This document shows, piece after piece, positions 1,245-20,632 of a DNA stretch of 20,632 nt. The position numbers and the translations under genes are program-made. The notes under the pieces were generated by a model. It was not told where the DNA came from, ran no database searches, and saw only the letters and a program-made list of their open reading frames with translations. How positions within the stretch are numbered: the first letter of the stretch is position 1; the number at the start of each line of letters is the position of its first letter. The stretch comes from Candidatus Eiseniibacteriota bacterium (GTDB taxonomy: Bacteria; Joyebacterota; Joyebacteria; Joyebacterales; Joyebacteraceae), in NCBI GenBank assembly GCA_043819135.1, contig JBDRFG010000024.1, forward strand, positions 1 through 20,632, read 5' to 3'.

Positions 1245-2129
1245 CTACTCCTCCCCGACGTCGGGTCCCAGTCCCAGCCGGTCCAGCACGAAGGCGTACT
1301 CGAACGCCCATTCCTTGAACCTCTCGTAGCGCCCTGAGGCGCCCCCGTGTCCCGCGCCCATGTTCGTCCTGAGTAGCAGCAGGTTGTCGCCGGTCTTGTG
1401 CGCGCGCAGCTTCGCCGTCCACTTCGCGGGCTCCCAGTACTGGACGCGCGGGTCGTTCAGACTCGCGGTCACGAGCATGTCCGGGTAGTCGAGCGCGCCG
1501 ACGTTGTCGTACGGCGAGTAGCTCTTCATATAGAAGTAGTACTCTTCCTCGTTGGGGTTCCCCCACTCGTCGTACTCGCCCACCGTGAGCGGTATGGACG
1601 CGTCGAGCATCGTGTTGAGCACGTCCACGAACGGGACGTCCGCGACGATGATCCTGTAGAGGTCGGGGCGCATGTTCGCGATGGCGCCCATCAGGAGGCC
1701 GCCGGCGCTCCCGCCCGTGGCCACCAGGCCGTCGGGCGTGGCGTATCCTTCACGGACAAGGTGCTCGGAGCACGCGATGAAATCGGTGAACGTGTTCATC
1801 TTGTTTAGCATGCTGCCCTCTTCCCACCACTGCTCGCCCATCTCGCCGCCGCCGCGCACGTGGGCGACGGCGTAGATGACCCCGCGGTCCAGAAGGCTCA
1901 GGCGGTTCGACGAGAACCACGGGTCCATGCTGGAGGCGTACGCGCCGTAGCCCATCAGGTAGACGGGGTTCCCCTCGTCTCGCCTCGCGTCCCGCCTGTA
2001 GAGCACGGAGATGGGCACCTCGGCGCCGTCCGTCGCCGTCGCGAAGAGGCGCTCGGACGCGTAGAGCAATGGGTCGTAGCCTCCCAGCACCTCTCTCTGT
2101 TTGAGGAGTTCCCTGTCGCGCGTGTTCAT
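1245..2129 (-). CDS. ptrB: Oligopeptidase B C-terminal fragment (alpha/beta-hydrolase catalytic domain)
   Basis: 294-aa ORF with intact Ser-Asp-His motifs. There is no obvious SD before ATG 2129, so independent translation is doubtful. Confidence 0.65.
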   Translation of the reverse strand: MNTRDRELLKQREVLGGYDPLLYASERLFATATDGAEVPISVLYRRDARRDEGNPVYLMGYGAYASSMDPWFSSNRLSLLDRGVIYAVAHVRGGGEMGEQWWEEGSMLNKMNTFTDFIACSEHLVREGYATPDGLVATGGSAGGLLMGAIANMRPDLYRIIVADVPFVDVLNTMLDASIPLTVGEYDEWGNPNEEEYYFYMKSYSPYDNVGALDYPDMLVTASLNDPRVQYWEPAKWTAKLRAHKTGDNLLLLRTNMGAGHGGASGRYERFKEWAFEYAFVLDRLGLGPDVGEE

Positions 2130-2138
2130 GTCGTAGTC

Positions 2139-3410
2139 TTAGATGGAGGTCGGCGTCACGTGAGACATGTACGAGAAGCGTATGGTCGCGGTCTCGTATT
2201 CCATGTTCTCGGACGGGTACACGGCGTAGACCGGCTCCGGGAATTCGATGTAGTGTTCTTCTCGCGCGTCCAGTTCCATCACGCGTATGCGCCGCTGCCC
2301 CCTCTCGCGCTCCGCGACGACGAGATGGTTCGCGAACGTCTCCACGCGCTCGATCTTGACGTCGTCTCTGTGGGGTATGACCTCCGTCCAGTTGTCCTTC
2401 GATGGCGCACCAACGGGGGTCTTCATAACCTTGTAGTTCTTCGCTCCGTCGTTCGTCCTGATGTAGAACTCGTTGCCCCGGTGCGGGAGGTAGTATTCGA
2501 TTTTCTTCTCTCTGGGATGGACCAGGGCGAACTCGCCGAACGGATCGTCCGCGCTCAACAGGTATTGCTCCTCCGTGTCCCTGCTGCCGATGTCCATGAT
2601 CAGGAACGCGTCGCTTCTGGTGCGGCTGATCCAGACGCCGTAGCCCGGGTCCTCTTCGTGGTGTATGAGAGCGTCCGCCGACGGGTCGGTTCCGAGAGCA
2701 TGTCTCCAAAGCCTGTCGGATCTTCGCGTCTCGTCCATGGTCGTGTAGAAGAGCGTGTTGCTGTCGTTGGCCCACTCGAGCGCATAGTCGATCTCGGGGA
2801 TGACGTCAGGCAGGAGCTCACCCGTCGTCAGGTCCTTGATGAAGAGCGTGAACGTCTCCGCTCCCGTCGTGTCGACCGAGTACGCCAGCAGCCCGTTGTC
2901 CGGGCTGACCCTCGTCGTCCGGATCTCGAAATAGTCGTGCCCCTCTGAGAGCTGGTTCTGGTCGAGCAGCACGATCTCCTCGCCGTCCAGGCTTCCCTCC
3001 GCGCGGCAGAGGATCGGGTACTGCTGTCCCTCCTCGGTGCGCTCGTAGTAGTAGAAACCGTTGTCGAGATAGGGCACGGAGAGATCCGTCTCCTTGATGC
3101 GTGCCACCATTTCTTCGTAGATGGTCTCCCGGAATCCCTCGATGTGGCGCGTCATGTCCGCGGTGTACTCGTTCTCGGCTTCGAGGTGGGCGATCACCTC
3201 AGGGCTCGACTTGTCCCGCATCCAGCGGTAGTCGTCCACGCGCACGTCGCCGAAGAGCGTGTCGGCCACTGGGATCTTTCGGGCGACAGGTGGCGTCGCT
3301 TCATCGGGCGTCGCGGTCTCCGCGACGCCCGGCGTCGTGGGCGTCAGCATCGTGGCCGCCAGCAGTGTCGCGACCACCGACGCGACGATCGGCATTCTCT
3401 TTCGTGTCAT
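2139..3410 (-). CDS. ptrB: Oligopeptidase B N-terminal fragment (signal peptide plus beta-propeller)
   Basis: 423-aa ORF with S9A N-terminal motifs, ending at the premature TAA. Confidence 0.7.
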   Translation of the reverse strand: MTRKRMPIVASVVATLLAATMLTPTTPGVAETATPDEATPPVARKIPVADTLFGDVRVDDYRWMRDKSSPEVIAHLEAENEYTADMTRHIEGFRETIYEEMVARIKETDLSVPYLDNGFYYYERTEEGQQYPILCRAEGSLDGEEIVLLDQNQLSEGHDYFEIRTTRVSPDNGLLAYSVDTTGAETFTLFIKDLTTGELLPDVIPEIDYALEWANDSNTLFYTTMDETRRSDRLWRHALGTDPSADALIHHEEDPGYGVWISRTRSDAFLIMDIGSRDTEEQYLLSADDPFGEFALVHPREKKIEYYLPHRGNEFYIRTNDGAKNYKVMKTPVGAPSKDNWTEVIPHRDDVKIERVETFANHLVVAERERGQRRIRVMELDAREEHYIEFPEPVYAVYPSENMEYETATIRFSYMSHVTPTSI

Positions 3411-6245: not shown

Positions 6246-6313
6246 GCGTGTCTCCTGTTCAAGCGGTGTCCGGCCCGCGGGTCGCGCCGGGTGGTCGGGA
6301 CTCGCCGGCGCGG

Positions 6314-7279
6314 CTAGTCGTTGCATGCGGCGAGCAGCTCTCCGACCGATGCGGTAGCCAGGCAGACCGATGTGTCGGCGGCGCCGTAGTAGATGAGCGC
6401 TTTGCTCTCGGGGTCCGCGAAACCCTCCACGTCGCACTCCTCCACTATCATGCCGCTTGGGAAGATCACGTTCGGGACCTGGCCGGTCATCTCGTACGGC
6501 TCCCTTGGCTCCAGCATGTTGTTGCGGCTTCGCGCGAGCACCCTCGAGGGATCGTCGAGGTCCAACAGCGCCACGCCCGCCTGGTAGATGCATGCACCCG
6601 CGAGGTGCGTCGCGATGCCGTGGTAGACGAGCAACCATCCCTCCCGCGTCTTGACCGGAGGCGGTCCCGGGCCGATGAGTTCGTCCCAGTAGTGGAGCCT
6701 GCCACGCATGACCGGCGCCACGGGTCGCCAGTTGAGGAGGTCGTCGGACCGCGACAGCACTATCTCATCCCCACTGGTGACTCCGGTCTCGAAGCTCACC
6801 CTGTTGGGCCGGTCGAGACGCGCGTAGCTCCCGTCGATCTTCTCCGGGAACAGCACGCCGTTACGGACGTCGTCCTCGCCGCTCGCCCCCAGGAAGTCGA
6901 TGGTCGTGAAGTCCGCCGTCCGCGCGAGTCCCAGCCGGCAGCCGTGGTCCGTGTCCATGGCGAACATGATGTAGAAGGTGTTCCCGAGCCTGGTGATCCG
7001 GGGGTCGTAGCTGTGGTAGACGGTCCCCCCGAAGCTGTCGATGCCCCGAATCTGTACCACGCGCCTCTCGACCTCGAAGTGCGTTCCGTCGTCGCCCTCG
7101 GCCATCATGAAGAACGTCTCGCGGCCACGCGTCTGTACGCGGAGCATCAGGAGATAGCGCCCCTCGTGCATGACGGCGCCCGGGTTGAACACCGACGTCG
7201 CGTCGACGATCTCGGGCGGGACGTCGGGGACGTCCTCGCGCGTGATTATCGGGTTCTCGGGGCTCCTCGCGAGCGCCAC
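6314..7279 (-). CDS. Glycoside hydrolase family 130 beta-mannoside phosphorylase-like protein
   Basis: SPENPII, SVFNPGA, SYDPRIT (catalytic Asp), RNGVLFPEKIDG, LDRP, GWLLVYHG, LLDLDDPSRV, EPREPYEMTGQVPNVIFPSG, IYYGAADT. GTG start 2 nt after the symporter stop, with SD GGAGGAG. Confidence 0.93.
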   Translation of the reverse strand: MALARSPENPIITREDVPDVPPEIVDATSVFNPGAVMHEGRYLLMLRVQTRGRETFFMMAEGDDGTHFEVERRVVQIRGIDSFGGTVYHSYDPRITRLGNTFYIMFAMDTDHGCRLGLARTADFTTIDFLGASGEDDVRNGVLFPEKIDGSYARLDRPNRVSFETGVTSGDEIVLSRSDDLLNWRPVAPVMRGRLHYWDELIGPGPPPVKTREGWLLVYHGIATHLAGACIYQAGVALLDLDDPSRVLARSRNNMLEPREPYEMTGQVPNVIFPSGMIVEECDVEGFADPESKALIYYGAADTSVCLATASVGELLAACND

Positions 7280-7281
7280 TG

Positions 7282-9297
7282 TTACTCCTCCCGTGCCGTT
7301 GCGTCGACGTGCTCGGCTACGCCGTCATCGTCCGCGTCGCGCTGCATCACCCTGAGCCGACCGAGCATGGCGCCCAGGTCTCTGAAGCCGCCTATCGCAA
7401 ACCAGACGATGACAAACACCGAGACCACCACCTGCACGAAGAAGTAGAACTTCCAGAATCGCGCCCACGCCTCGCTCGGCACGTCGTGGTGCAGATTGTA
7501 GATGGTCCCCACGATGAACACGAGTATCCAGAAGGTCGTGTGGGCGTAGCTCGCTATGTAGATGATGCGGTCGCCCCTCGTGAACTCCTTCCCCATGCCC
7601 AGCACGCGAAGCCCCCTGGACGGGGCAGCGTTGACGACGGTCGTCTCACGGGCCGTGTCGTACCTGCCGCGGTGCAGCAGCCTGTCGAGGTCGAAGGACC
7701 GCCGCTTCCCCAGGAGCGACACGAGCACGTAGAGCACGGCGGACGCCCCCATGGCCATCGCCCAGTACTGCTGGCCGTTGATGTGGTAGAGCCACCTGAG
7801 GACGCTCCACCCGTGTACGGCGATCTGTGACAGGTTCTCGGGCGTTGCGAGGAACATCTCCTCGGGGAGTCTGTGGATGAGAATGCCTCCGACCGCGATG
7901 CTCGAGCCCGTGATGAGCGCAGCCCACGCGGCGGGCGCGGTGCCCCGTTTCCAGTAGAGCCCCCCGATGATGACGGCGCCCGAGCCTCCGGCGAAGATGG
8001 CGCCGGTGATCGCGAAGAAGAGGAAGATGTACTCGCTCTGCTGGAACAGGAGACTGAAGAAGAAGATAAAGACGGCCACGCCGAAGATGGACCACCGGAG
8101 CAGTCGCAGGTGCTGTTTCTGCGAGAATCGCTTCTTCCTGAACGGCATGACGACGTCCTGAATGAAGATGCTGCCCCACGAATGCAGGTAGGTGTCGTGC
8201 GTGCTGATGAAGGCGGCCAGCATGACGGCGGCGAACGCTCCCATCAGCCCCGCCGGAAGCAGTCGCGCGAGCACCAGCGGACCCCTCATCTGGCTCTGGA
8301 TGGCCTCGTTGCCGACACCGGATATTGCGCTCTCTACGCCGGCGGCCAGTTGTGAGAAGTCGGGGTGGTGCATTACCGTGTAGATGATGATGGGCACGAA
8401 CAGCAGGAAGAGCCCCTGTGGGAACCCGCGCCAGTTGCCCAGCACGCTGCCCATCTTGGCCTCGTGCGCACTCACCGCGGAGCTGTTGTAGGCCTGCGTG
8501 CCCTGCCACGACATGGCGCCGTAGAGGACGCCGACGATGCCTATCAGGAAGTACCAGAGATTGAAGTCCTCGATGTGGCTCGTCTTGAACGGGTTTATGA
8601 GCGACGCTTCCTGTGGCGCCGCTGCCAAGGCCTCGACAATCTGTGTCCAGTCGACCTGGAGGAACAGGTAGAGAACGATGGCCACAAAGACGACGTTGAC
8701 GAAGAGCCCCTGCGCGAAATCGGTGATGATGACGGCAACCTGTCCGCCGGAGAAGACGAAGAAGAGCGCGATACCCAAGAGCACGATCATGACGAGTGGG
8801 AAGGTCGGCATGGCCAGGCCGAAGAACCCGACGGCCGCCGGGAGGCCGCAGAAGTGAATGAAGAAACGCGCCCCGACTGCCGGGAAGATGCCGAAGTTGA
8901 TCAACCCCGACAGGAACGCGATGATGCCCGCGAAGACGCGGAACTTCTTGCTGTAACGCGTCTCAAAGAACTGCGCGAGCGTCAGCGCCCGCGTCTGCCG
9001 GAAGCGATAGATGACCCAGCCGGAGACAGTGATGATGAGAATGACCACGCTCATCGTGAAGCCCCACCACGTCATCGAGAACCCGGCGATGTAGTTCATC
9101 TCCAGGAGGCCGACGATGGTGATGGCGCCTAAGCCCGCGATGCCGGCGGCCATGCTGATGAGGTAACGGCCGGCAGTTCTGCCCGCCGCCAGGAAATCGG
9201 CAACGCTCCTCATGTAGCCGCGACTCAGAAGAACGCCGCCGACCAGCACACCGAGCACGACGAAGAGGATCGTCCAATCTACGGGCGCCATGTTCAC
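7282..9297 (-). CDS. Sodium:solute symporter (SSS/SLC5 family), probably a sugar or oligosaccharide importer
   Basis: Many hydrophobic TM segments; DFLAAGR, TLAQFFETRYS, SGGQVAVIITDFAQG, LPAGLMGAFAAVMLAAFIST, GLYWKRGT. Start is most likely GTG 9297 (SD AGGAG) or ATG 9291; the track's 9366 start is less likely. Confidence 0.9.
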   Translation of the reverse strand: MNMAPVDWTILFVVLGVLVGGVLLSRGYMRSVADFLAAGRTAGRYLISMAAGIAGLGAITIVGLLEMNYIAGFSMTWWGFTMSVVILIITVSGWVIYRFRQTRALTLAQFFETRYSKKFRVFAGIIAFLSGLINFGIFPAVGARFFIHFCGLPAAVGFFGLAMPTFPLVMIVLLGIALFFVFSGGQVAVIITDFAQGLFVNVVFVAIVLYLFLQVDWTQIVEALAAAPQEASLINPFKTSHIEDFNLWYFLIGIVGVLYGAMSWQGTQAYNSSAVSAHEAKMGSVLGNWRGFPQGLFLLFVPIIIYTVMHHPDFSQLAAGVESAISGVGNEAIQSQMRGPLVLARLLPAGLMGAFAAVMLAAFISTHDTYLHSWGSIFIQDVVMPFRKKRFSQKQHLRLLRWSIFGVAVFIFFFSLLFQQSEYIFLFFAITGAIFAGGSGAVIIGGLYWKRGTAPAAWAALITGSSIAVGGILIHRLPEEMFLATPENLSQIAVHGWSVLRWLYHINGQQYWAMAMGASAVLYVLVSLLGKRRSFDLDRLLHRGRYDTARETTVVNAAPSRGLRVLGMGKEFTRGDRIIYIASYAHTTFWILVFIVGTIYNLHHDVPSEAWARFWKFYFFVQVVVSVFVIVWFAIGGFRDLGAMLGRLRVMQRDADDDGVAEHVDATAREE

Positions 9298-9316
9298 GAG
9301 ATCCTCTCCTTGGTCC

Positions 9317-9364
9317 GGTGTGTCGGTCACGCTCGGCCGTGTGGTGCGTCGGTCACGCTCGGCC
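9317..9364. repeat. Intergenic direct repeat, 2 x 22 bp (17-bp perfect core GTCGGTCACGCTCGGCC), period 26 bp
   Basis: GGTGtGTCGGTCACGCTCGGCC at 9317-9338 and GGTGcGTCGGTCACGCTCGGCC at 9343-9364. Confidence 0.85.
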
Positions 9365-9376
9365 ACCCGGGCCGGT

Positions 9377-10510
9377 CTACCGGATGTGCCCGTCCTGAGA
9401 GATGCGGAGCGTCGTTCCGTCCGGCCGCTTCACCGACGCCTCGAAACCGCTCGGCGACACGTGGACGGCGGGCGGCCAGTTCGCTCCCGGGGGCGCCCCG
9501 CCCAGACCCAGCGCATCGAGGTCGGCCGTGTAGCCGCCGTTGTTCCCGAAGAACGTCCTCTCTGCGTAGTAGAGCCGCATCAGGGTGCGCCGGTCTGCGG
9601 CCGAGGGGTCGGGCGCGTAGGCCGTCTCCGCCACACCCGCCGTGACACCCGAGAACTGCACGAATCCCCACATTTCGGGGTAGTGCATGTTGACGAGCCC
9701 CTGTGGCGACCACACCCAGTTGTCCTCCGGAAGCGGTCGTCCGGTCTCGGGGTCTGTCAGCTTGACGTAGTCGCCGTCGACGACCTCCGTCTTCCACTCG
9801 ACGCGCGAGAAGTTAACGCGCCACTGGTCCCCGTCCTCCGGAGGCGTGGGTCCGTGAGCGCACTCCTCGAGCACCGACCAGGGAATGGCCAGTTCTACGC
9901 TCCACCCCTCGTCGGTGTCTTCCGGATCGTTGATCGTGCCGCGAACGTCAATGCCCGTCCTGAGTCCCTGGATGTCCCAGGAGTCGATGGCCGTGCCGCC
10001 GTCGCGGTACGGCTTCGTAAGAAGTAGATCCCACTCGGTCCCGAACGCGTTGACCTCGAGTTCGTAGTACTCGTGCGTGTCACCGTCGGGGTCGATGAAG
10101 ACCTCGAAATCGTTGTCGTAGAATATGACGGAGTCGCGTTTGTCCAGCTTGGCCCAGACGTGCGGCTCTTCCATCTCGGCCGTCACGTAGAAGAAGTCAT
10201 CGTCCCACAGCATCTTCACCCTGGTCGAGAAGCGGGGTGCCGGCAGACGGTCGCCATCGATGTCAACGAACTCGTCGGTCCAGGGCGCGAACTGCCAGGC
10301 GCGCTCGTCGAGACGACCGTCGATAACAGGCGGCGCGTCGGTCCGGTAGCACACGTAGTTTCTCGGATCTCCGTCGAAGGAGGGTTTGGGGAACACATAG
10401 AGCGGAACGTCAGGAGCGGCCGCTCCCGGCAGCAGGAGGACGAAGCCGATGAGTTCGAGCGCACTGACCCAGTTCCCGGAGCGCCCGGCGCTCCGCGGTA
10501 CACGTTGCAT
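9377..10510 (-). CDS. Carbohydrate-binding family 9-like (CBM9/DOMON-like) protein, probably exported
   Basis: PVIDGRLDERAW, TRVKMLWDDDFFYV, DNDFEVFIDPDGD, YYELEVNAFGTEWD, GWSVELAIPW, WRVNFSRVEW, NWVWSPQG, MHYPEMWGFVQF. Hydrophobic N-terminal stretch (LIGFVLLLPGAAA); SD GGAGGG before ATG 10510. Confidence 0.85.
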   Translation of the reverse strand: MQRVPRSAGRSGNWVSALELIGFVLLLPGAAAPDVPLYVFPKPSFDGDPRNYVCYRTDAPPVIDGRLDERAWQFAPWTDEFVDIDGDRLPAPRFSTRVKMLWDDDFFYVTAEMEEPHVWAKLDKRDSVIFYDNDFEVFIDPDGDTHEYYELEVNAFGTEWDLLLTKPYRDGGTAIDSWDIQGLRTGIDVRGTINDPEDTDEGWSVELAIPWSVLEECAHGPTPPEDGDQWRVNFSRVEWKTEVVDGDYVKLTDPETGRPLPEDNWVWSPQGLVNMHYPEMWGFVQFSGVTAGVAETAYAPDPSAADRRTLMRLYYAERTFFGNNGGYTADLDALGLGGAPPGANWPPAVHVSPSGFEASVKRPDGTTLRISQDGHIR

Positions 10511-10575
10511 GCGTCCCTCCCGATCCTCGGGTGCTGCGGCGACGCCGCGGCCGGCGCACCGTGCGTGTTCCGCGG

Positions 10576-10581
10576 ATTATA
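10576..10581 (-). promoter_or_regulatory. Candidate -10 element (TATAAT) for an internal promoter upstream of the CBM9-like gene
   Basis: Perfect TATAAT on the minus strand in the 106-bp intergenic gap of a high-GC region; no convincing -35 element. Confidence 0.35.
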
Positions 10582-10616
10582 CATCATTTCCGGTCCAGTG
10601 CGCCCGCGCTGTCGCC

Positions 10617-13058
10617 CTAGTCGTTCCTGAGCCTGAAGCAGCGGATGCCCCAGCTCGCCTTTCTGCACTCTGCGAGCGCTGCCGCCTGGTCCGCCAGTTC
10701 GTCTCCCCACAGGACGGAGTAGCGGAACTCATAGAAGCCGCCCAACTCGGCCGAGAAGTTCGTTTCCCAGTAGTTGGTCATGAGCCAGGCGTACGGGAGC
10801 GCAGGATCGCCTGCGAGGGCGGGGTCGCCCGCGAGGAGCCTGGGACCGTGCTCGAGCGCGCCCAGCTGAAGAAGATGGTTGTCCAGAGTCGCGACGCCGA
10901 CGCCGTATCCCTCGGACACGATCGCGAACCCCTCCTGGATGCTGTAGAAGTCCGTGAGCGTTCCGGGTATCTGGTCGATGCGCGGACGCACGGCGGCACC
11001 GGCCTTGTCCAGCCAGAGCTGCGCGTCCGGCACACCGGTCGTGAAGGGCAGCGACAGATAGACGTTCTCCGGCTCCCACACGCTGTCCTTGTGCATCCTC
11101 ACGGCGACGTCGACGCGCGGTTCGTCCAGGTAGGCCCTGAGTTCCACGGTGAAGAGACTGATCCCGGGCGCGCCGTAGTCGAGCCACGTCGAGACGAACA
11201 CGTCCCCGCCCTCGACGCCGGCCGACCCGATGAGACAGCCCGAGGAGCGAACGGCGTCCTCGCCCTTCCTGTTGAGGCCCATCTTCCCTCGGACCGGCCA
11301 CACGTCGTCGGGCCCCGGCACCGGCGTCACCTCGTGGACCGGCGTGAACGCGGCGTGGCGGCGGTCGGGACGCAGGAGTTCCCGCGACAGCGCTGTGTCG
11401 AACCAACTGACGATGCCGTCGCCGGGCGCCCAGGCTATCCGCACGAACGGGGTTTCGAGCACCCCCTCCTCGCGCGGCTCCGCCGGTCCGGCCGCCGGTT
11501 CGCTGTCGCTCGAGTCGCACGGCTTCGGCGCTTCTTCCCGACCAGCACGTCCACCCGCAGGTACGAGTTCCAGCTGGCGTTCCTCCCCCGCCTCCAGTTC
11601 CAGGTGGACGAAGAACTGCGCGCCGGGCGGCGTGAGCAAGAGCTGGCAGGGCAGCTCGGCATCCGCCTCGACGTCCCTGACCACCGCGCCGCCGCCGAAA
11701 CCCAGCTCGTGAAACTCGAAGTGTCTGACGAGCAGGCTCGCGACACCGCTCACGGCGTGGTCGAGGGGATTGATGGCCCGATAGCGGCTACCGGCGACGG
11801 CCGACAGCGGCGCCGCGCCGAGTTCTTCCAGCGCGTCGGCGACCAGCTCCCGGGCGTCGTCGTGAGCGCTCGCCGCGAAGCCTCTCTTTCTCTCGGAGAT
11901 CGCGTGCACCATGTAGTGCCACGGTTCGATCATCGAGAAGCTGTGGCTGAACGTGTGTTCCGAGTAGAGAGCAAGCTGGTCCTCGACGGCGCGCGTGTCG
12001 GCGTGCGTGAGGTCAGGGTACCGCTCGAGCAGCCTGCGGTAGTACTGAAGCGCGCGCTGCGCGCGGCGGAAGAGCATCGTGCTCTCCGGGTCGCCCGCGC
12101 AGCCGTCCGACCACCAATCTGGCCAGTCGCCGCGATGGACCGGTATGTCGCGTTCCGATTCCCTCAGGCGTTCGAAGAACTGTGAGAGCGTGACCATCCT
12201 GATCCGGTAGCGGTCTCCGTGCTCGCTGTTCCAGCGCTCTATGAAGTCGACGACCCCGGGCGACGGCGGCGCATTGTCGGACCGCAGGCCCGACGCCATC
12301 ACGGGAACGAAGTCGTACGGGTAGCCCTCTGCCTCGAGACCATCGAAGTAGCGCGGGATGCGCCTCTCGGCCACGCCCCAGTGGTTGTGGTAGATCATGT
12401 CCGCGTCGCAGTCGTCCTTGGTGTGGTACGAAGAGACGGCGTCCGGGACGATACCGAGCTCGTTCCCGAAGTGGTAGTGCTCGCCGCTCCACACGAGGAC
12501 GCGGTCGCCCCCCGGCGTCTCCCACCAGAACGGGACCTGCTTCGCGCCCAGCGGGTACATCCCGTGATGGGTGTGTATGCACGTGAAGAGATTCGCGATG
12601 CCGTTGTCGTGGAGCGCCTGGGAGTAGCCCCAGCTGTACCCGTTGATGTCCGCGGTCATCGCCGAGTCGACCGGAACCCCGATCGAGTTTCCGTAGTTGG
12701 CGGCGCGCGCCAGCATGTTCGAAAGGGTCTCGTAGCCCAGAAGCTCGTTCGAGTTCAGGTAGTTGCCCGAGATGCCGATGGCGCCCGAGCGGACCGCGGC
12801 GGCGAACGCCTCCGCCTCCTGCACGGTCGCCTGCTCGAGGAACCGCTCAACGCCCCAGAACGTCTCGCACGTCCACCTGAACCCGTCGAAGTGCGGGACC
12901 ACCCGCTCGCGCGTGCTTTCGATGATGTCGAGCGCCTGCCGGATGAAGTCCGACTGCCAGCGCGCGACGCGGCCCTGAAGCTCGGTGTAGCCGATGTCGG
13001 TGTGCGTGTGGTGGATGACGTAGAGCGTTTTCACGGACGCGCTCTCGTGTGGTGGCAT
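10617..13058 (-). CDS. GH38-like glycoside hydrolase (divergent N-terminal Zn-binding barrel), ~813 aa, no signal peptide
   Basis: VIHHTHTDIGYT (HxHxD metal motif), FRWTCE, AMTADINGYSWG (putative nucleophile), PFWWETPGG, SDNAPP, GDWPDWWSDG, LYSEHTF, YAWLMTNYWETNF. The likely start is ATG 13058 after SD GGAGG; the track's 13184 start overlaps the upstream gene. Confidence 0.8.
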   Translation of the reverse strand: MPPHESASVKTLYVIHHTHTDIGYTELQGRVARWQSDFIRQALDIIESTRERVVPHFDGFRWTCETFWGVERFLEQATVQEAEAFAAAVRSGAIGISGNYLNSNELLGYETLSNMLARAANYGNSIGVPVDSAMTADINGYSWGYSQALHDNGIANLFTCIHTHHGMYPLGAKQVPFWWETPGGDRVLVWSGEHYHFGNELGIVPDAVSSYHTKDDCDADMIYHNHWGVAERRIPRYFDGLEAEGYPYDFVPVMASGLRSDNAPPSPGVVDFIERWNSEHGDRYRIRMVTLSQFFERLRESERDIPVHRGDWPDWWSDGCAGDPESTMLFRRAQRALQYYRRLLERYPDLTHADTRAVEDQLALYSEHTFSHSFSMIEPWHYMVHAISERKRGFAASAHDDARELVADALEELGAAPLSAVAGSRYRAINPLDHAVSGVASLLVRHFEFHELGFGGGAVVRDVEADAELPCQLLLTPPGAQFFVHLELEAGEERQLELVPAGGRAGREEAPKPCDSSDSEPAAGPAEPREEGVLETPFVRIAWAPGDGIVSWFDTALSRELLRPDRRHAAFTPVHEVTPVPGPDDVWPVRGKMGLNRKGEDAVRSSGCLIGSAGVEGGDVFVSTWLDYGAPGISLFTVELRAYLDEPRVDVAVRMHKDSVWEPENVYLSLPFTTGVPDAQLWLDKAGAAVRPRIDQIPGTLTDFYSIQEGFAIVSEGYGVGVATLDNHLLQLGALEHGPRLLAGDPALAGDPALPYAWLMTNYWETNFSAELGGFYEFRYSVLWGDELADQAAALAECRKASWGIRCFRLRND

Positions 13059-13090
13059 CGCATGTTCCTCCGCGGCGTCGCTTCCTCGCG

Positions 13091-14014
13091 CTACCGTCCG
13101 AAGAATCCTCTGATCCGCTCGAAGAAGCCCAGTCTGCCTTCCTGGAGCGCCGTCGTCGGAACGCCCCACCTGTTCAGGCGCCACGACAGGTGCTCCTCGA
13201 ATCCCGAGTAGGTCTCGATGGTCCCGTCCTCGAGCGACACCCTGAATATCCGGTCGAAGTCGCGCTCGAGGGCCACGTAGATCTCGCCGAGTTCCGGGTC
13301 GAACACCATCGAGCAGCGCGTCAGTTCCCAGGAGGTCCGTTCGAGCAGCTCGAGTCCATTGGCGACATCGAAGCTTTCGAAGTGCTCCTCGATGTAGTCG
13401 TGTGCGAGTTTGTACCGGTCGGCGCCCACGCCGCGGACGTGGTCGATGTCGTCATTGACGAACCGGCAGTTCGCGAAGTTCGTCATCACGATGCGGTCGC
13501 GCTCGATCGGCGTGACGGCCGTGCCGTCCTCGCCGGGCTCGACGATCATGGCGCGCCCGGTGGGGTCGGCGAACAGGAGGTGGAGCGTCACGCTGGGGCA
13601 GTCGACCATTTGATGGGTCAAGAGGTGCTCCTCGACGTCGGAGACGGCAGCGAAGTCCGCGAGCGCCTGCGCGTACAGCTCCCAGGGACACTGCTCCCCG
13701 GGGCCGCGTCCCGGGGCATCCGGGACCATCGGATTCAGCTCCTGCTGCGCCACGAAGAGCCCGTGTTCGTTCATGCCTGCGGTCCTGGGTATCCTCCTGG
13801 GTCCTCTGACGAAGGCAAGGTGGAAGGCCCTCGTTCCGTCCGACTCCTCTATCGTAAGTCTCACCGGAACAGCGGGGTCGTAGTCGAAGTTCATGCCGTA
13901 GAGCGCTGTCTCCGAGTACACCGCGAAGCTGGTGCAGGCGCGGCAGATGGGCGCCCCGCACAGCAGAGCGGCCGTGACGGCGGCCGCGACTGCGAGTCTA
14001 CTGCTTCTTCTCAT
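13091..14014 (-). CDS. Secreted Ntn-hydrolase (linear amide C-N hydrolase / choloylglycine hydrolase / acid ceramidase-like)
   Basis: Signal peptide MRRSSRLAVAAAVTAALLCGAPICRA followed directly by CTSF (N-terminal Cys nucleophile); YGMNFDY, AGMNEHGLFV, HLLFADPTGRAMIVE, VMTNF, DRY. The likely start is ATG 14014. Confidence 0.82.
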   Translation of the reverse strand: MRRSSRLAVAAAVTAALLCGAPICRACTSFAVYSETALYGMNFDYDPAVPVRLTIEESDGTRAFHLAFVRGPRRIPRTAGMNEHGLFVAQQELNPMVPDAPGRGPGEQCPWELYAQALADFAAVSDVEEHLLTHQMVDCPSVTLHLLFADPTGRAMIVEPGEDGTAVTPIERDRIVMTNFANCRFVNDDIDHVRGVGADRYKLAHDYIEEHFESFDVANGLELLERTSWELTRCSMVFDPELGEIYVALERDFDRIFRVSLEDGTIETYSGFEEHLSWRLNRWGVPTTALQEGRLGFFERIRGFFGR

Positions 14015-14244: not shown

Positions 14245-16512
14245 ATGATAGGCAAGATAGTCTCACACTACAGGATTATCGAGAAGATAGGCCAGGGCGG
14301 CATGGGCGTCGTCTACAAGGCGGAGGACCTGCGACTCAGGCGAACGGTCGCGCTCAAGTTCCTTCCGCACGAGATGACGCTGAACCCGGACGCCAAGGCC
14401 AGGTTCATGCACGAGGCCAGAAGCGCCTCCGCGCTCGAACATCCTTCCATCTGCAACATCCACGAGATCGACGAGACCGAGGACGGCCAGCTTTTCATCT
14501 GCATGGCCTGCTACGAAGGCGAGCCGCTGAGTGCGCGCATAGCCCTCGGACCGCTCGACATGGACGAGGCTCTGGGCATCGCGCTCCAGGTGGCGGAGGG
14601 CCTCGCCGAGGCCAGCTCCCGGGGCATCGTCCACAGGGACATCAAGCCCGGCAACATCCTGCTGACGGACGGCGGAAGCGTCAAGATAGTCGACTTCGGA
14701 CTCGCCAAGCTGGCGGGCGCCACGCGGATCACGCGCACCGGAACGACCATGGGGACGGCCGCCTACATGTCACCTGAGCAGGTCGAAGGCAGGGACATCG
14801 ACCACCGGTCCGACGTCTGGTCGCTGGGGGCCGTGCTCTACGAGATGATCACCGGCCGCCCGCCGTTCGGCGGCGATACCGAGCTGACCGTCATGTACTC
14901 GATCATGAACAGCGACCTCGACGAGATGTGCCGCGAGCGTCCAGACGTGCCCCCTGACCTCGAACGCATCGTCGGCCGCATGCTGGCGAAGGACCCGTCC
15001 GAGCGATTCAACGACGCGGCGGAGGTCGTGCGGGACCTCCGGGCTCTCCTGGCTCTCCGGGCTCTTGGGACCACCGACGGGAGCAGGACGTCCGTATCTG
15101 CTCCAGCGACCGCGGCGGGCTCGAGGCCCAACCCCTCGATAGCCGTCATGCCGTTCGTGGACATGAGCGCCGACGGCGACCAGGAGTATTTCTGTGACGG
15201 AATGGCCGAGGAGATCATGAACGCGCTCACTCACGTCGAGGGGCTTCGCGTCGTCGCGAGGGCGTCGGCGTTCGCGTTCAAGGGCAGGAACGACGACATT
15301 CGCGAGATCGGCAGGAAGCTCAAGGTCGCCACTCTGCTGGAGGGAAGCGTGCGGAAGTCGGGCTCGCGCATGCGCGTGACGGCCGAGCTCGTCAGCGTGC
15401 AGGACGGGTTCCGTCTCTGGTCGGAGCGATACGACAGCGACATCGAGGACGTGTTCGCCGTACAGGACGACATCTCGCTCGCGATCGTCGACAAGCTCCG
15501 GCTCAGGCTCGTCTCGGACGACAAGGAGAAGCTCCTCAGAAGGCACACGGAGGACCCAGAGGCCCTCAATCTGTGTCTCAAGGGACGCTTCTTCTGGAAC
15601 AAGAGGACAGAGGACAACCTTCTGCGCGCCATCGACCACTACGAGCAGGCCATCGCCCGCGACCCCGGGTACGCGCTCGCGTACGCGGGACTCGCTGACT
15701 GCTACATCGTTCTTCCGGACTACAGTTCTGTCGCTCCGCGGACGGCCTGCCCGAAGGCGAAGGACGCCGTCATGCGGGCCCTGGAGATCGACGACTCGCT
15801 TGCCGAGGCTCACGCCTCGCTCGCTCTCGTGCGCACCACATACGACTGGGACTGGTCCGGAGCCGAGCGTGAATTCAGGCGCGCGATCGAGATCACTCCC
15901 TCCTACGCCACCGCGCACTACTGGTTCGCGCTGCACCTGATGTGGATGGGGCGCATGGACGAGGCACTGGAGAGGATCGAGAAGGCGCGCGAGCTCGACC
16001 CGCTCTCGCTCGTCATCTACAGGAACCTGGCGCAGATGTGCATCTTCGCGCGGCGGTACGATGAGGCCATCGAAGCCCTCAAGCGGACCATTGAGATGGA
16101 CCCACGATTCCCGGTGGCGCACGTTCTTCTTGGAGAGGCCTACTCGCACAAGGGTATGAAGGAGGAGGCGCTGGCCGAATTCCGGAAGGAGCGCGAGCTC
16201 TCCGGTGAATTCGGTCCCGGCGTCGATACGCGGATCGGCAGCGCCTACGTGAGGTTGGGCATGCGCAACGAGGCCGAGGAGGTGTTGAGCCGCCTGGCCG
16301 TCCACGCGCAGGAGGCCTTCGTCAAGCCCTCGGACCTCGCCGAGGTGCTCTTCTCGCTCGGCGAGCGCGACCGTGCCTTCGAGTGCCTCGAGGCCGCGTT
16401 CGAGGAGCGCGACAAGGGAGTCCTGGGCCTCAAGGTCTATCCCGTCTACGACGACGTCCGGTCCGATCCCAGATTCAGGGCGCTCCTCTCCAGGATGGGG
16501 CTGGAAGGCTGA
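14245..16512 (+). CDS. Hanks-type Ser/Thr protein kinase with TolB-like middle domain and C-terminal TPR repeats
   Basis: IGQGGMGVVYKA, VALKFL, HRDIKPGN, DFGLAK, GTAAYMSPEQ, SDVWSLG; SIAVMPFVDMSADGDQEYFCDGMAEEI (TolB-like); TPR helices (AIARDPGYALAYAGLA, AIEITPSYATAHYW, ARELDPLS). No clear TM segment. Confidence 0.95.
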   Translation: MIGKIVSHYRIIEKIGQGGMGVVYKAEDLRLRRTVALKFLPHEMTLNPDAKARFMHEARSASALEHPSICNIHEIDETEDGQLFICMACYEGEPLSARIALGPLDMDEALGIALQVAEGLAEASSRGIVHRDIKPGNILLTDGGSVKIVDFGLAKLAGATRITRTGTTMGTAAYMSPEQVEGRDIDHRSDVWSLGAVLYEMITGRPPFGGDTELTVMYSIMNSDLDEMCRERPDVPPDLERIVGRMLAKDPSERFNDAAEVVRDLRALLALRALGTTDGSRTSVSAPATAAGSRPNPSIAVMPFVDMSADGDQEYFCDGMAEEIMNALTHVEGLRVVARASAFAFKGRNDDIREIGRKLKVATLLEGSVRKSGSRMRVTAELVSVQDGFRLWSERYDSDIEDVFAVQDDISLAIVDKLRLRLVSDDKEKLLRRHTEDPEALNLCLKGRFFWNKRTEDNLLRAIDHYEQAIARDPGYALAYAGLADCYIVLPDYSSVAPRTACPKAKDAVMRALEIDDSLAEAHASLALVRTTYDWDWSGAEREFRRAIEITPSYATAHYWFALHLMWMGRMDEALERIEKARELDPLSLVIYRNLAQMCIFARRYDEAIEALKRTIEMDPRFPVAHVLLGEAYSHKGMKEEALAEFRKERELSGEFGPGVDTRIGSAYVRLGMRNEAEEVLSRLAVHAQEAFVKPSDLAEVLFSLGERDRAFECLEAAFEERDKGVLGLKVYPVYDDVRSDPRFRALLSRMGLEG

Positions 16513-16568: not shown

Positions 16569-16747
16569 ACTTCTGCCACTCTTGCAGGGATTTCCCTTCC
16601 CATCCTCCTCGGAATCGCGTAGCATCACTCCCACTCGTAATGACTGAATATCAATCCTGACCCCGCACTGTGTCCGGGCGGCGCACCGCGAGCGTGCGGA
16701 GTGGCGCGCACGGGAGAGTGCCGAGTCCGTGCACGGGCGCGTCCGCC

Positions 16748-17161
16748 ATGCAGAGAGCGTTCGACAGAAGCCTGAACTCCCTCGGAGAGATCCTCAAGTT
16801 CGTCGACGTCTTCGCCGAGCAGCAGGGTCTGAGCGGCAAGACCGCCTTCGCGACGAGGCTGGTCACGGAGGAGCTGTTCGCGAACTTCGTCAGGCACAAT
16901 CGGGGTGGCGAGGACCGCATCGAGGTCAGTCTATGCATGGACGCGGGTCTGCTGACGCTCAGGCTGCGGGACTTCGGTGTCGAGCCGTTCGACATCGCGG
17001 ACCGCGGGCCGGTGGACGTGAGCCGGCCGCTGAGCGAGCGCACGGCGGGTGGTCTTGGACTGCATTTTGTGAAGAGCTTCTTCGACAGCCTGTCGTACGA
17101 GTACTCCGACGGGACGGCGTGCGTCACGGCGACCAAGAGCATCGGGGGGGTGGATGTTTGA
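16748..17161 (+). CDS. RsbW/SpoIIAB-like anti-sigma factor / Ser kinase (HATPase_c-like ATP-binding protein)
   Basis: EELFANFVRH (N box), LRDFGVEPFD (G1), GGLGLHFVKSFFDSLSY (G2). The likely start is ATG 16748 (137 aa); overlaps the STAS gene by 8 nt. Confidence 0.88.
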   Translation: MQRAFDRSLNSLGEILKFVDVFAEQQGLSGKTAFATRLVTEELFANFVRHNRGGEDRIEVSLCMDAGLLTLRLRDFGVEPFDIADRGPVDVSRPLSERTAGGLGLHFVKSFFDSLSYEYSDGTACVTATKSIGGVDV

Positions 17162-17438
17162 CATCAGGCTGGCCGACGACGGACGCATCCTCCTGTCGGG
17201 AAGGCTCGACGCCTCTCAGGTCGAGAGCGTCAGGACCGTTCTCGGTACTGTTACAGGATCGTGCACGCTCGACTTCTCCGAGCTCGAGTACATCTCGAGT
17301 CTGGGTCTCGGCGTGCTTCTCGAGGCGCAGAAGCGTCTGACCGATGCGGGCCAAGGCCTGATCATCACCAATCTGAGCGCGCATATCGCGGACCTGTTCA
17401 AGCTCGCGGGATTCGACCGGATCTTCGAGATCAGATAG
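17154..17438 (+). CDS. STAS-domain anti-sigma factor antagonist (RsbV/SpoIIAA-like)
   Basis: LSGRLDA, LDFSELEYISSLGLGVLL (phospho-Ser motif), IADLFKLAGFDRIF; 94 aa. Confidence 0.92.
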   Translation: MFDIRLADDGRILLSGRLDASQVESVRTVLGTVTGSCTLDFSELEYISSLGLGVLLEAQKRLTDAGQGLIITNLSAHIADLFKLAGFDRIFEIR

Positions 17439-17499: not shown

Positions 17500-17536
17500 G
17501 ATTCCCGCCAACATTCGAGGCTCCCGGACTGTAGTT

Positions 17537-18073
17537 ATGATAGATGAAGCGCGTGTCATAGAGATGGCCAGAGAGGGCGACAGCGGGGCCTTCGAAACGA
17601 TCCTCGAGAGGTACGAGAAACCGGTCTTCAACGCAGCCTACAGGATAGTAGCCGACTATGAAGATGCAGCGGATGTCACTCAGACGGTCTTCCTCAAGGT
17701 TCACCAGAAGCTCGGGAGCTACAAGCCCGAGTACAAGTTCTTCAGCTGGATCTATCGGATCGCCGTCAACGAGGCCATCAACTTCGGCAAGCGCCGCACG
17801 CGCGAGCGTCCGCTCGATGATGCTCTCGCTGCGCGTCAAGGTCATTCTGTCGATCATCTTGCTCGCATTGCACGTGATGAGCTGATTCAGGGAGCGCTTC
17901 GCGCGCTCAAGATGGATTACCGAGTGGTGGTGGTGATGAAGTACTTCCTGGAGCTGTCCTACAAGGAGATCGGCGACATCGTGGGGATTCCTGAGAAGAC
18001 GGTGAAGTCGCGGTTGTTCACGGGCAGGGAGCTTCTCAGACAAGAGCTGGTCCAAAGGGGATACTCAAGGTGA
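17537..18073 (+). CDS. ECF (sigma-70 group 4) RNA polymerase sigma factor
   Basis: GDSGAFETILERYEKPVFNAAYRIV, DAADVTQTVFLKV, FFSWIYRIAVN (region 2); LSYKEIGDIVGIPEKTVKSRLFTGR (region 4). The likely start is ATG 17537 (178 aa). Confidence 0.95.
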   Translation: MIDEARVIEMAREGDSGAFETILERYEKPVFNAAYRIVADYEDAADVTQTVFLKVHQKLGSYKPEYKFFSWIYRIAVNEAINFGKRRTRERPLDDALAARQGHSVDHLARIARDELIQGALRALKMDYRVVVVMKYFLELSYKEIGDIVGIPEKTVKSRLFTGRELLRQELVQRGYSR

Positions 18074-18843
18074 TCGACAGGCGGCACATAGAGCTGATGA
18101 ACGCGGAGATCGACGGGGTCAACTCCCCCGAGGCATCTCGCGAACTCCATGACTGCCTCGATGCCTGTCCGGACGCCCGTCGTCGTTTCGAGGAGCTGAA
18201 GGAGGTCGGGCGCGTTCTCGCAGAATCCGACCAGGTCTCCCCGCCCGCGCAGCTGAAGGTCGCGATCATGAGAGCCGTGGCCGCGCGCAGGAGCGGGGAG
18301 GTTGGTGCCGGACTCCTCGAGAGGATGAGAGAGGCTCTCAGTCCCGCGCCGAGAATGAGGCTGGCTTACGCCTTCACGGGCGGCATCGCGGTTGGGCTCG
18401 GTCTCTTCGCGCTGCTGTCGGTCACCCTCCCCCAGATGCTTCCCGGTGACGCAGCAGACCTGTATGGAACCGTCGGGGGCGGCGAGCGCCGCTTCGTGGC
18501 GGCGGATCCCGTGTCATTCAACGTGCCCGGGGCCACGGGAAGCGCCGGCGTTAGCTACTGCGCGGAGACCGTGATGCTCGAGCTGAGCCTGTCGTCCGAC
18601 TCGGAAGTCGTGGTGGTCCTCTCCTACGACGAGCAGGTCGACTTCGACGGACTAAGAGCGCTCCAGGCCGGAGATCATGCGATCAGAGTGACCGGCCACA
18701 GGGTCGAGCTCACACACGCAGGAATGCGCGACTACGACCTCCACTTCACTGACCATACCGAGTCTCACCTGCCGATGCGAATGAGCGTGCTCGAGGCAGG
18801 TCGGACCGTGTTCGAGAGTGCTGTCCCGCCGGGGCGAGAGTAG
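18070..18843 (+). CDS. Transmembrane anti-sigma factor (ZAS-like N-terminus, one TM helix, extracytoplasmic beta-rich domain)
   Basis: GTGA overlap with the sigma gene; ELMNAEIDG...ELHDCLDACPDARRRFEEL resembles zf-HC2 anti-sigma domains; TM segment LAYAFTGGIAVGLGLFALLSV. Confidence 0.8.
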   Translation: MIDRRHIELMNAEIDGVNSPEASRELHDCLDACPDARRRFEELKEVGRVLAESDQVSPPAQLKVAIMRAVAARRSGEVGAGLLERMREALSPAPRMRLAYAFTGGIAVGLGLFALLSVTLPQMLPGDAADLYGTVGGGERRFVAADPVSFNVPGATGSAGVSYCAETVMLELSLSSDSEVVVVLSYDEQVDFDGLRALQAGDHAIRVTGHRVELTHAGMRDYDLHFTDHTESHLPMRMSVLEAGRTVFESAVPPGRE

Positions 18844-18934: not shown

Positions 18935-20632
18935 ATGGGTAAGACGAAGGCAATCTTGGCCGGTGTTGTCGTCATCGCCGTTGCCGCGGTCGTCTACTTC
19001 GGTTTCTTCTTCCCACCTCCGCCTGGTGAGGACGTCACCGGCACGATCGGCGCCGTTCAGAAATACAGAGCGGAGCAGATGACCGATGATGACGTCGTCC
19101 TCGCTGGCGAGGAGTCCATGTCCGAGAGCGACGTCAACGAGCTCGTGGGACTGCTCGATGCCGCATCGGCCGAGGAGAAAGCGGGCATGTTCGAGCGTAT
19201 GAGCCACGATGAGAAGGTGGCTTGCTTCAACGCTCTCCCGCTCGAGATGCAGAAGGATCTGCTCGAAAAGAGCCCCGTATGGTCTCAGCCGTACGGACTC
19301 GAGTTCTTCCAGAGGATGTCGGTCGACGACAAGGCCTCGCTCTTCAAGGAGATGCCTCTCGACGCCAGGCTCGACGTGCTTGAGAAGAGCCCCGTCTGGA
19401 GTCAGCCGTACGGCCTCGACTTCTTCCAGAGACTGCCCGAAGAAGAGAAGGTCGCCGCGTTCGACCGTATGTCGATCGAGCCGAAGCTGGCGCAGCTCCG
19501 GAAGAGCCCCGTGTGGAGCCAGCCCTACGGTCTCGACTTCTTCCAGCGCATGCCCGAAGAAGAGAAGATCGCGATGTTCGACCGTATGTCGATTGAGCCG
19601 AAGCTGGCGCAGCTCCGCAAGAGCCCTGTGTGGAGACAGCCCTACGGCCTCGACTTCTTCGAGAAGATGCCGGTCGAGATGAAGGCCATCGGCTACGACC
19701 TCGTTCCGCTCGACGAGAGGGTCGCGGCTCTCGAGAGGAGCCCCGTTTGGAGTCAGCCCTACGGCCTCGACTTCTTCGAGAAGATGCCGGTCGAGATGAA
19801 GGCCATGGCGTTCGAGAGAAGCCCGGTGTGGTCTCAGCCGTACGGACTCGAGTTCTTCCAGCGGATGTCGATCGAGCCGAAGCTGGCGCAGCTCCGCAGG
19901 AGCCCGGTGTGGTCGCAGCCTTACGCTCTTGAGTACTTCCAGAGGAGCCCGGTGAGCGAGCAGCCCGAGGCCATAGAGTTCTTCCGGCGGATGACCACCG
20001 ACGACAGGATGGAGGCTCTCGAGCGCCTGCCCGAGACGGATCTGAGTCAGATCCTGGAGCGCAGCCCCGTGTGGTCGCAGCCGTACGACCTCGCCAGCTT
20101 CAATCGTGCCCCCCTCGAGGAGAAGGTCGCGATGCTCGATGCGATGTCTCTCGAGGACCACGTGAGCGTGTTGGAGAGAAGTCCGGTCTGGTCTCAGCCG
20201 TACGGACTCGAGTTCTTCCAGCGCATGGACGTTGCCGACAAGGCGTCCTACTTCGGCAGGATGACTACCGAGAACCGCCTCTTCTTCCTGGAGCAGTGCT
20301 CTCTCGACTGCCTGACCGGCATTCTCGAGCGCAGCCCGGTGTGGTCGCAGCCGTACGACCTCGCCAGCTTCAATCGCGCTCCCCTCGAGGAGAAGGTCGC
20401 GATGCTCGATGCGATGTCGGTAGAGGACCAGGCATCGTTACTCGAAAGAAGCCCGGTGTGGTCGCAGCCGTACGGACTCGATTTTTTCAACAGGATGTCG
20501 ATCGAGCCGAAGCTGGCGCAGCTCCGCAGGAGCCCGGTGTGGTCGCAGCCTTACGCTCTTGAGTACTTCCAGAGGAGCCCGGTGAGCGAGCAGCCCGAGG
20601 CCATAGAGTTCTTCCGGCGGATGACCACCGAC
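18935..20632 (+). CDS. Membrane-anchored modular repeat protein with SPVWSQPY repeats (>=566 aa, 3' end beyond the right edge); absent from ORF track
   Basis: SD-like AAGGGGG then ATG 18935; MGKTK, TM segment AILAGVVVIAVAAVVYFGFFF, then PPPPGEDVTGTIGAVQKYRAEQMTDDDVVL. No stop in frame up to 20632. Repeats are conserved in amino acids while codons vary. Confidence 0.9.
   Translation, partial: MGKTKAILAGVVVIAVAAVVYFGFFFPPPPGEDVTGTIGAVQKYRAEQMTDDDVVLAGEESMSESDVNELVGLLDAASAEEKAGMFERMSHDEKVACFNALPLEMQKDLLEKSPVWSQPYGLEFFQRMSVDDKASLFKEMPLDARLDVLEKSPVWSQPYGLDFFQRLPEEEKVAAFDRMSIEPKLAQLRKSPVWSQPYGLDFFQRMPEEEKIAMFDRMSIEPKLAQLRKSPVWRQPYGLDFFEKMPVEMKAIGYDLVPLDERVAALERSPVWSQPYGLDFFEKMPVEMKAMAFERSPVWSQPYGLEFFQRMSIEPKLAQLRRSPVWSQPYALEYFQRSPVSEQPEAIEFFRRMTTDDRMEALERLPETDLSQILERSPVWSQPYDLASFNRAPLEEKVAMLDAMSLEDHVSVLERSPVWSQPYGLEFFQRMDVADKASYFGRMTTENRLFFLEQCSLDCLTGILERSPVWSQPYDLASFNRAPLEEKVAMLDAMSVEDQASLLERSPVWSQPYGLDFFNRMSIEPKLAQLRRSPVWSQPYALEYFQRSPVSEQPEAIEFFRRMTTD
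19163..20632 (+). repeat. Intragenic tandem array of 36-bp (12-aa) and 45-bp (15-aa) modules
   Basis: SPV motif starts at 19271, 19388, 19505, 19622, 19739, 19820, 19901, 19946*, 20063, 20180, 20333, 20450, 20531, 20576* (* = degenerate SPVSEQPE). Spacings are 117,117,117,117,81,81,45,117,117,153,117,81,45 bp. Confidence 0.92.

Follow-up and report, generated by a model that had tools for sequence, protein, structure and literature searches.

The repeat protein encoded at the 3′ end of the window (the whole 20,632-nucleotide stretch of Candidatus Eiseniibacteriota DNA analyzed here, which is an entire contig) is probably the leader-tagged partner of an Omp85-family peptidase in an apparently undescribed envelope system. 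Judged by family alignments, the conserved element of its family is a leader just outside the membrane anchor and not the Trp/Tyr array. On the same comparisons, the SPVWSQPY 15-residue module is one lineage's version of an exchangeable body and not a functional signature. The gene runs off the end of the contig and has the following features:

18935–20632, forward strand: repeat-protein gene, 566 residues in a stop-free frame, 3′ end cut by the contig end
18953–19009, forward strand: N-terminal membrane anchor, residues 7–25, with an aromatic/Pro-Pro belt at its end (hydropathy and family consensus)
19040–19108, forward strand: conserved leader, residues 36–58, G[TA]IGA[AV]xKYRxEQ[IM]xxxDVxL (family consensus and predicted docking)
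19040–19051, forward strand: G-T-I-G, residues 36–39, about 10 residues outside the anchor, putative PrsW site
19163–20620, forward strand: repeat body, residues 77–562 (gap-free parse and structure model)
19271, 19388, 19505, 19622, 19739, 19820 and 19901, forward strand: starts of the first half of the 14 fifteen-mers
19946, 20063, 20180, 20333, 20450, 20531 and 20576, forward strand: starts of the second half of the 14 fifteen-mers
20493–20632, forward strand: exact 140-nucleotide repeat, a copy of 19863–20002, likely cause of the assembly break

The original prediction described a membrane-anchored protein built from 12- and 15-residue modules, and both parts of that description hold. A single hydrophobic segment spans residues 7–25 (mean hydropathy of 2.71; the maximum past residue 40 is 0.68), and on recounting, residues 77–562 divide, with no gap, into 23 twelve-mers and 14 fifteen-mers, and residues 65–76 perhaps form a 24th twelve-mer. 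Eleven of the fifteen-mers carry SPVWSQPY, one SPVWRQPY and two SPVSEQPE. The 14 copies of SPV[WS][SRE]QP, at residues 113 to 548, are spaced by 39, 39, 39, 39, 27, 27, 15, 39, 39, 51, 39, 27 and 15 residues, exactly as had been reported, and 2000 shuffles of the protein yielded none. Orthologues are 816–915 residues long, with repeats reaching the C-terminus and no further domain.

The possibility of an assembly artefact had been raised for this array. The array is genuine: its copies differ mostly at silent sites (across the first eight codons, 728 codon pairs show 211 synonymous and 83 non-synonymous differences, with Ser5 of the motif encoded by both TCN and AGY codons), a genome of the same genus (G006) holds a complete 868-residue orthologue with 68–78% identity across the main blocks, and pieces of the array are present in contigs of other sequencing runs. 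The contig probably breaks where it does because of the exact 140-nucleotide repeat, and the remainder of the gene was not found elsewhere in its own assembly, which is 92% complete. In the search of sequencing runs, the best run shared only 0.17 of the words. One contig from an RNA library is identical to positions 19246–19491, which is not proof of transcription. Contigs of two other runs skip 117 nucleotides at 19636–19754 (one 39-residue unit); this is either a copy-number or strain variant or a misjoin at a stretch of 53 identical bases.

The body had been called unannotated and likened to the helical superhelices of MgtE-N and FliG. The likeness is supported by sequence, and 'unannotated' fails for the body: the protein matches Pfam MgtE_N (PF03448) at 51.5 bits against a cut-off of 25.9, and its orthologues score 46–63 bits. 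The term still applies to the 15-mer and the leader, neither of which matches a family. In the structure model, whose pLDDT is only 53.5, each 12-mer forms one 10-residue helix, and in most 15-mers a short helix is followed, after a kink, by one of 9 residues, suggesting that the 15-mer is a 12-mer variant with a kink. The best structural matches of this model are MgtE cytoplasmic domains with Z scores of 8.2, 7.7, 7.5 and 6.8, a middling range that is common for helical repeats (top match 8gpv, RMSD of 4.3 over 122 aligned residues), and its Atlas neighbors are mostly MgtE_N proteins. An Atlas feature search gave no usable match, Foldseek with the repeat model returned TM scores of 0.22 or less and was uninformative, and a PDB sequence search found nothing under an E value of 0.65 and thus no solved relative. 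The protein shares with the PF03448 superhelix a 12-residue N-capped helix period but differs from the MgtE N domain in having about 37 or more units, interspersed 15-mers, a probably extracytoplasmic location (as originally proposed) and neither CBS nor transporter domain. We rejected an identity as an MgtE Mg2+ transporter: TIGR00400 scores 24.7 against 232.75 bits, and the complete orthologues consist of repeats only, lacking the CBS pair and the multi-pass domain.

The proposal that the body displays a functional Trp/Tyr array, with a geometry dictated by the order of its modules, fares poorly among relatives. In the 20 long units of the G006 orthologue, the Trp position holds W in 10, F in 8 and S in 2, and the module order differs from that of the window. 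More distant orthologues (G021, G016 and G013) have looser 15/16-mers without Tyr, and SP-x-W occurs in only 3 of 90 family bodies, all three from the window's own family. The predominance of silent changes in the 8-residue motif does indicate selection on it within the lineage, and the solenoid fold would suit a multivalent binder or scaffold, but the Trp would most simply pack into the solenoid core, and we consider such a role very unlikely. The G016 orthologue (L018, 7248–9992) contains an internal run of about seven near-identical 14-mers akin to the window's SPVSEQPE unit, which by its sequence is a recent tandem expansion.

A search with residues 1–119 returned 334 clusters at E ≤ 0.001, whose common elements are the anchor, Pro-Pro and the 21-residue leader. 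In the family alignment, G31, G34 and Q43 are invariant in 51 of 51 sequences, in part through selection on the search pattern, and no Pfam or NCBIfam family covers the leader. The anchor and linker had been recognized in the original prediction, which missed that this segment is the conserved element of a family and belongs to a gene cassette. The bodies behind the leader are mutually unrelated and between 128 and 855 residues long (counting a few near-duplicate rows). A clear period was detected in 70 of 89 bodies, again including a few near-duplicate rows: 9 residues in 39, 12 in 12, 18 in 8 and other values in 11. A candidate family-wide cleavage site, [LF][EDG][RK], was enriched in the first 131 bodies but was dropped because the 9-mer bodies deviate, and no cleavage motif universal to all bodies was found. 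Among 141 pattern matches in viral contigs, none is a relative. We also discarded a match in G049 (E = 4.7e-7), the leader motif being absent from the DNA retrieved.

The leader gene belongs to a cassette ordered RsbW, STAS, ECF sigma factor, anti-sigma factor, repeat protein, Omp85 peptidase and PrsW. The window carries the first five genes in this order, the four preceding the repeat gene, with a promoter-like element, being:

16670–17161, forward strand: RsbW-like ATPase/kinase, real start probably internal to the frame
17154–17438, forward strand: STAS anti-anti-sigma-like protein
17508–17536, forward strand: promoter-like CCAAC...TGTAGTT directly 5′ of the ECF start codon
17537–18073, forward strand: ECF sigma factor (Sigma70_r2 and r4_2; TIGR02937 at 105 bits against a cut-off of 42.9)
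18070–18843, forward strand: anti-sigma factor with N-terminal anti-sigma domain, transmembrane helix, G133-T134-V135 and outer domain (NCBIfam antisigma E value of 1.9e-08, below that model's cut-off)

The Omp85 peptidase and PrsW genes were not found in the window's own assembly; because the contig breaks inside the repeat gene, membership of this copy in the cassette rests on the upstream genes and on the orthologues.

Searching GTDB genomes for the leader gave 54 loci, labeled Bacteroidota/Ignavibacteria, Candidatus Eisenbacteria (the closest), Krumholzibacteriota, Latescibacterota, KSB1, Zixibacteria, Cloacimonadota, Fibrobacteraceae, Acidobacteriota and one proteobacterium. Of these loci, 42 have an ECF gene, 41 a STAS gene, 41 an anti-sigma domain and 40 a member of a cluster of RsbW-like and some SpoIIE proteins. 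An Omp85 peptidase gene of about 1000 codons is present in 48 (downstream in 47, upstream in one); five of the remaining six are cut short, and L076 lacks it within 7 kb downstream. The linkage also holds in reverse: among the best 80 of 541 metagenome loci, a choice that favors intact cassettes, all 34 Omp85 loci with at least 3.5 kb of upstream sequence have a leader gene. PrsW follows the Omp85 gene in 33 of 35 GTDB loci with room for it, the other two genomes carrying PrsW elsewhere, and in 61 of 66 such loci among the same best 80. Of 31 genomes in the phylum, only the four with a full repeat orthologue were found to have the Omp85 gene. Clustering of open reading frames over the 54 loci returned the cassette genes and a Ser/Thr kinase (nine loci), with no conserved modifying enzyme near the leader gene. 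In the window, this kinase, with TPR repeats, lies directly upstream of the cassette (14245–16512). Second-type cassette copies occur in the same family (L170, G007:C239; L021, G016:C102), and the 9-mer body of the G007 copy suggests a separate acquisition. Elsewhere in the window, the reverse strand carries a sugar-use cluster (3447–13184) with a GH38N-domain protein and a CBM9-like protein, to which reading of the sequence adds another GH38-like enzyme, a GH130-like protein and a solute:sodium symporter. The same strand carries an oligopeptidase B-like gene in two frames (1245–3410), split at about 2130–2139, possibly by a frameshift.

The Omp85 protein comprises a signal peptide, an HExxH+E peptidase, a TolB-like propeller and an Omp85 barrel. 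Its model (pTM of 0.84) places the peptidase at residues 45–325 and the propeller at 335–605; the propeller aligns with TolB (Z of 23.0, RMSD of 2.9 over 244 residues) and the barrel with BamA 8xnb (Z of 19.6, RMSD of 4.0 over 289 residues). Pfam Omp85_2 matches one of two homologues at 30.2 bits against a cut-off of 23.1. The peptidase residues H143, E144, H147 and E197 are invariant in 37 of 37 sequences, and the enzyme looks active from this conservation. The PrsW proteins of relatives match PF13367 at 63–68 bits against 23.5 and have invariant columns for the E-E-x-x-K, E, H and H-x-x-x-N motifs, and they form a subfamily that scores 31 against a cut-off of 225 for the NCBIfam equivalog. 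In L052 (13941–14945) and its homologues, PrsW ends in a conserved extension of about 130 residues, which by the positive-inside rule is probably cytoplasmic and could link PrsW to the RsbW/STAS switch.

We modeled the 34-residue leader of the G016 orthologue with residues 42–1002 of its cognate Omp85 protein. The complex scored 0.81, and the best of three controls scored 0.00; the 0.81 mark is reached by 116 of 157 solved complexes and by 2 of 215 mismatched pairs, a calibration roughly valid for the alignments used here. Contact agreement in the complex runs was at least 83% and partner pLDDT at least 66, and 21 of the 23 contacting leader residues are identical between the G016 orthologue and the window. 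The leader is thus predicted to dock on the peptidase and propeller, running along the peptidase (residues 65–73, 134–138 and 207–217) and along the propeller and linker (607–644), with no barrel residues listed. The closest contacts join K, Y, R, A, E, Q and I of the leader to the invariant G209 and G210 and to propeller and linker residues. Since the listed contacts include no catalytic residue, the model describes docking and not cleavage. Conservation of the interface (0.70 versus a background of 0.65, p = 0.087) is not significantly elevated.

A leader that connects peptidase, propeller and linker while staying clear of the catalytic residues could also act like a propeptide in trans, clamping the peptidase to the propeller and holding the enzyme off, with the amphipathic body escorting the barrel or soaking up amphipathic peptides such as antimicrobial ones. 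The bodies are indeed Ala/Leu-rich amphipathic helices, and Bacillus subtilis sigma-W, as described in parts of PMC10202637, responds to antimicrobial peptides. For a chaperone of a barrel that is 42–68% identical across phyla, however, unrelated units and lengths between 128 and 855 residues would be unexpected, and we regard this role as quite improbable.

We favor a reading in which PrsW sheds the repeat protein, its leader loads it on the Omp85 peptidase, and processing or export of the body follows, with feedback through the ECF sigma factor; we hold the chances of this scheme to be about even. The periplasm is far wider than the roughly 10 residues that separate the leader from the inner membrane, so that docking on an assembled outer-membrane protein would require prior shedding. 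PrsW would likely cut the repeat protein from its inner-membrane anchor near G-T-I-G, and the shed protein would likely reach the Omp85 zinc peptidase as dedicated cargo, guided by its leader. The peptidase would then process the body at the outer-membrane barrel, or pass it through. The same PrsW likely cuts the anti-sigma factor at a matching G-T motif, which would free the ECF sigma factor to transcribe more cargo, peptidase and PrsW, in a feedback loop gated by the RsbW/STAS switch. The anatomy of the protein, the gene linkage, the two separable modules, the shared juxtamembrane motif and the promoter-like motif are observed and leader docking is predicted, whereas the topology of the repeat protein, its shedding by PrsW and its processing or export are inferred.

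The regulatory half of this scheme draws on two recurrent motifs. CCAAC...TGTA precedes 31 of 38 ECF starts, including that of the window (shuffle mean of 1.3, maximum of 6), and 22 of 50 repeat genes (mean of 3.7, maximum of 9), with no clear copy 5′ of the window's repeat gene. In the window (17508–17539) and the other ECF loci with the motif (31 of 38), the putative −10 element lies only about three bases from the ECF ATG, too close for a usual start site; the true start codon may be further downstream, or the transcript may offer no ECF start that can be translated. The second motif lies just outside the transmembrane helix of the anti-sigma factor, where G (34 of 35 aligned sequences) is followed by T or S (32 of 35), as in the repeat protein. 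The match of G-T-I-G with this G-[TS]-hydrophobic element, and its degeneration in signal-peptide variants of the repeat protein, mark it as the candidate PrsW site on both proteins. At 16 of 95 loci (23 of 149 proteins) the repeat protein carries an anti-sigma domain as an in-frame fusion, and because of these fusions the two juxtamembrane segments look interchangeable. The fused genes usually keep an internal Met, which in P0010, P0024, P0051, P0121 and others is accompanied by a ribosome-binding-like sequence; in L031 the fused frame still contains the promoter-like motif. Such genes probably give two isoforms.

The fusions, which place the leader on the anti-sigma factor itself, also suit a proximity sensor or decoy. 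The leader of the anchored protein would then capture the Omp85 peptidase only while it is near the inner membrane, as in stalled assembly or a shrunken periplasm, and capture would trigger or damp cutting of the anti-sigma factor, the body serving as spacer or shield. The same docking model fits, and the repeat proteins have no C-terminal domain or conserved tip. Cassette variants weigh against it, and we think it unlikely. In G026 and G019, STAS, ECF, anti-sigma and PrsW genes stand without repeat or Omp85 genes, so that the regulators appear to work alone, and in L124 and P0155 the leader sits on a protein that is apparently soluble and has no anti-sigma factor beside it. The L124 argument comes from one 14.9-kb locus, ordered ECF, repeat and Omp85, with neither anti-sigma nor PrsW gene within 6 kb of the Omp85 gene. 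The repeat protein of L124 has, as read by eye, a signal-peptide-like N-terminus and a degenerate G-T-I-G with KY-x-x-EQ...DV intact, and its relative P0155 is likewise a signal-peptide variant; L158 has kept its anchor, yet no PrsW gene is present in the DNA examined. From such gene contents, the cassette is read as two separable modules, regulator and repeat/Omp85. Two further loci, L167 (G010) and L168 (G021), have an anti-sigma gene without its N-terminal domain beside an intact PrsW gene, with no ECF gene in the DNA retrieved, and by this reading are decaying regulator-only copies.

The cargo reading is favored by the conservation of the leader in front of exchangeable bodies, by the one-to-one linkage with the Omp85 gene, by the docking model, by the invariant peptidase and PrsW motifs, by the G-T match with the anti-sigma factor and by the natural cassette variants. 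Against it, there is no body-wide cleavage motif, a folded solenoid would be an odd peptide precursor, the modeled complex is the G016 pair and not that of the window, and the Omp85 and PrsW genes are missing from the window's own assembly. A bolder version would see in the cassette a pathway, so far undescribed, for export and maturation at the outer membrane in FCB bacteria and Acidobacteria. In it, PrsW would shed a membrane-anchored polyprotein, its leader would load it on a dedicated Omp85 gluzincin, and cutting of the repeats would yield, in many copies, a lineage-specific peptide that leaves the cell and feeds back on the ECF sigma factor, amounting to polymorphic peptide signaling in Gram-negative bacteria; we advance this only tentatively and think it doubtful. 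The perfect 19-mers of L124 look like peptide cores, whereas the MgtE_N-like bodies look like folded solenoids. The signal-peptide forms at L124 (5000–5812) and P0155, with near-perfect 19-mer repeats and no anti-sigma or PrsW gene nearby, are the best candidates for a true peptide precursor.

Several known systems resemble parts of the cassette. Like sigma-W/RsiW/PrsW/RasP of B. subtilis, in the parts of PMC10202637 that describe it, the cassette combines an ECF sigma factor, a single-pass anti-sigma factor and a PrsW-family protease; the first two are adjacent in the window, and intact PrsW motifs are present in its relatives. Linkage and the shared G-[TS] motif suggest a putative site-1 cut of the anti-sigma factor by PrsW. 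The cassette differs in its diderm hosts, in the 130-residue extension of its own PrsW and in adding the RsbW/STAS switch, the repeat protein and the Omp85 peptidase. In the relevant parts of Zhang et al. 2012 (PMC3482391), PrsW is proposed as a cargo-releasing peptidase, similar to the role suggested here, where PrsW is a separate gene.

Two-partner secretion (TpsA/TpsB) likewise pairs adjacent cargo and Omp85-family barrel genes with a constant N-terminal tag and a variable body. The putative cargo is instead an alpha-helical protein with a membrane anchor and a leader of 21 residues, lacking TPS and toxin domains, and its barrel partner has a gluzincin and a propeller in place of POTRA domains. 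We therefore rejected this assignment, there being no Pfam match to a TPS domain or beta-helix, an all-helical model, and a periplasmic part made of peptidase and propeller. The WD40-Omp85 subfamily of Heinz & Lithgow 2014 (PMC4104836) also has a TolB-like propeller N-terminal to the barrel; the word 'peptidase' occurs 0 times in the main text of that article, its passages on the subfamily name no partner or cassette, and the Metallo-Omp85 described there uses PF00149, not an HExxH domain. Leader-directed peptide maturation, as by peptidase-containing transporters acting on multi-core precursors, has in common with the cassette a conserved leader, repeated variable units, an adjacent peptidase-channel gene and exosite-like docking; it differs in that the cassette has an outer-membrane barrel in place of an ABC transporter and no conserved modifying enzyme. 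A double-glycine leader and a darobactin-like W...Y cross-link were dismissed because their spacing differs and no modifying enzyme is conserved nearby. The conserved modifying enzymes expected beside a RiPP precursor are likewise absent from the gene clusters of the 54 loci.

We found no description of the cassette or its motifs in the main texts of the open-access literature, although the published ECF reclassification may describe the neighborhood of this ECF group. What is new is apparently the pair of cargo and Omp85 peptidase; the regulator half resembles sigma-W/RsiW/PrsW, and the 15-mer by itself is apparently a variant of MgtE_N repeats. We know of no substrate for Omp85 proteins with a peptidase and a propeller and, to our knowledge, PrsW has few known roles in diderm bacteria. 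Our analysis offers a candidate partner, linked one-to-one to the Omp85 gene, and a testable interface in its 21-residue leader, which is predicted to dock on the Omp85 protein. If correct, it would account for a large family of 'hypothetical' repeat proteins with unrelated body sequences and would add, for hundreds of lineages that are mostly uncultured, a new way in which proteins are cut and possibly exported across the envelope.
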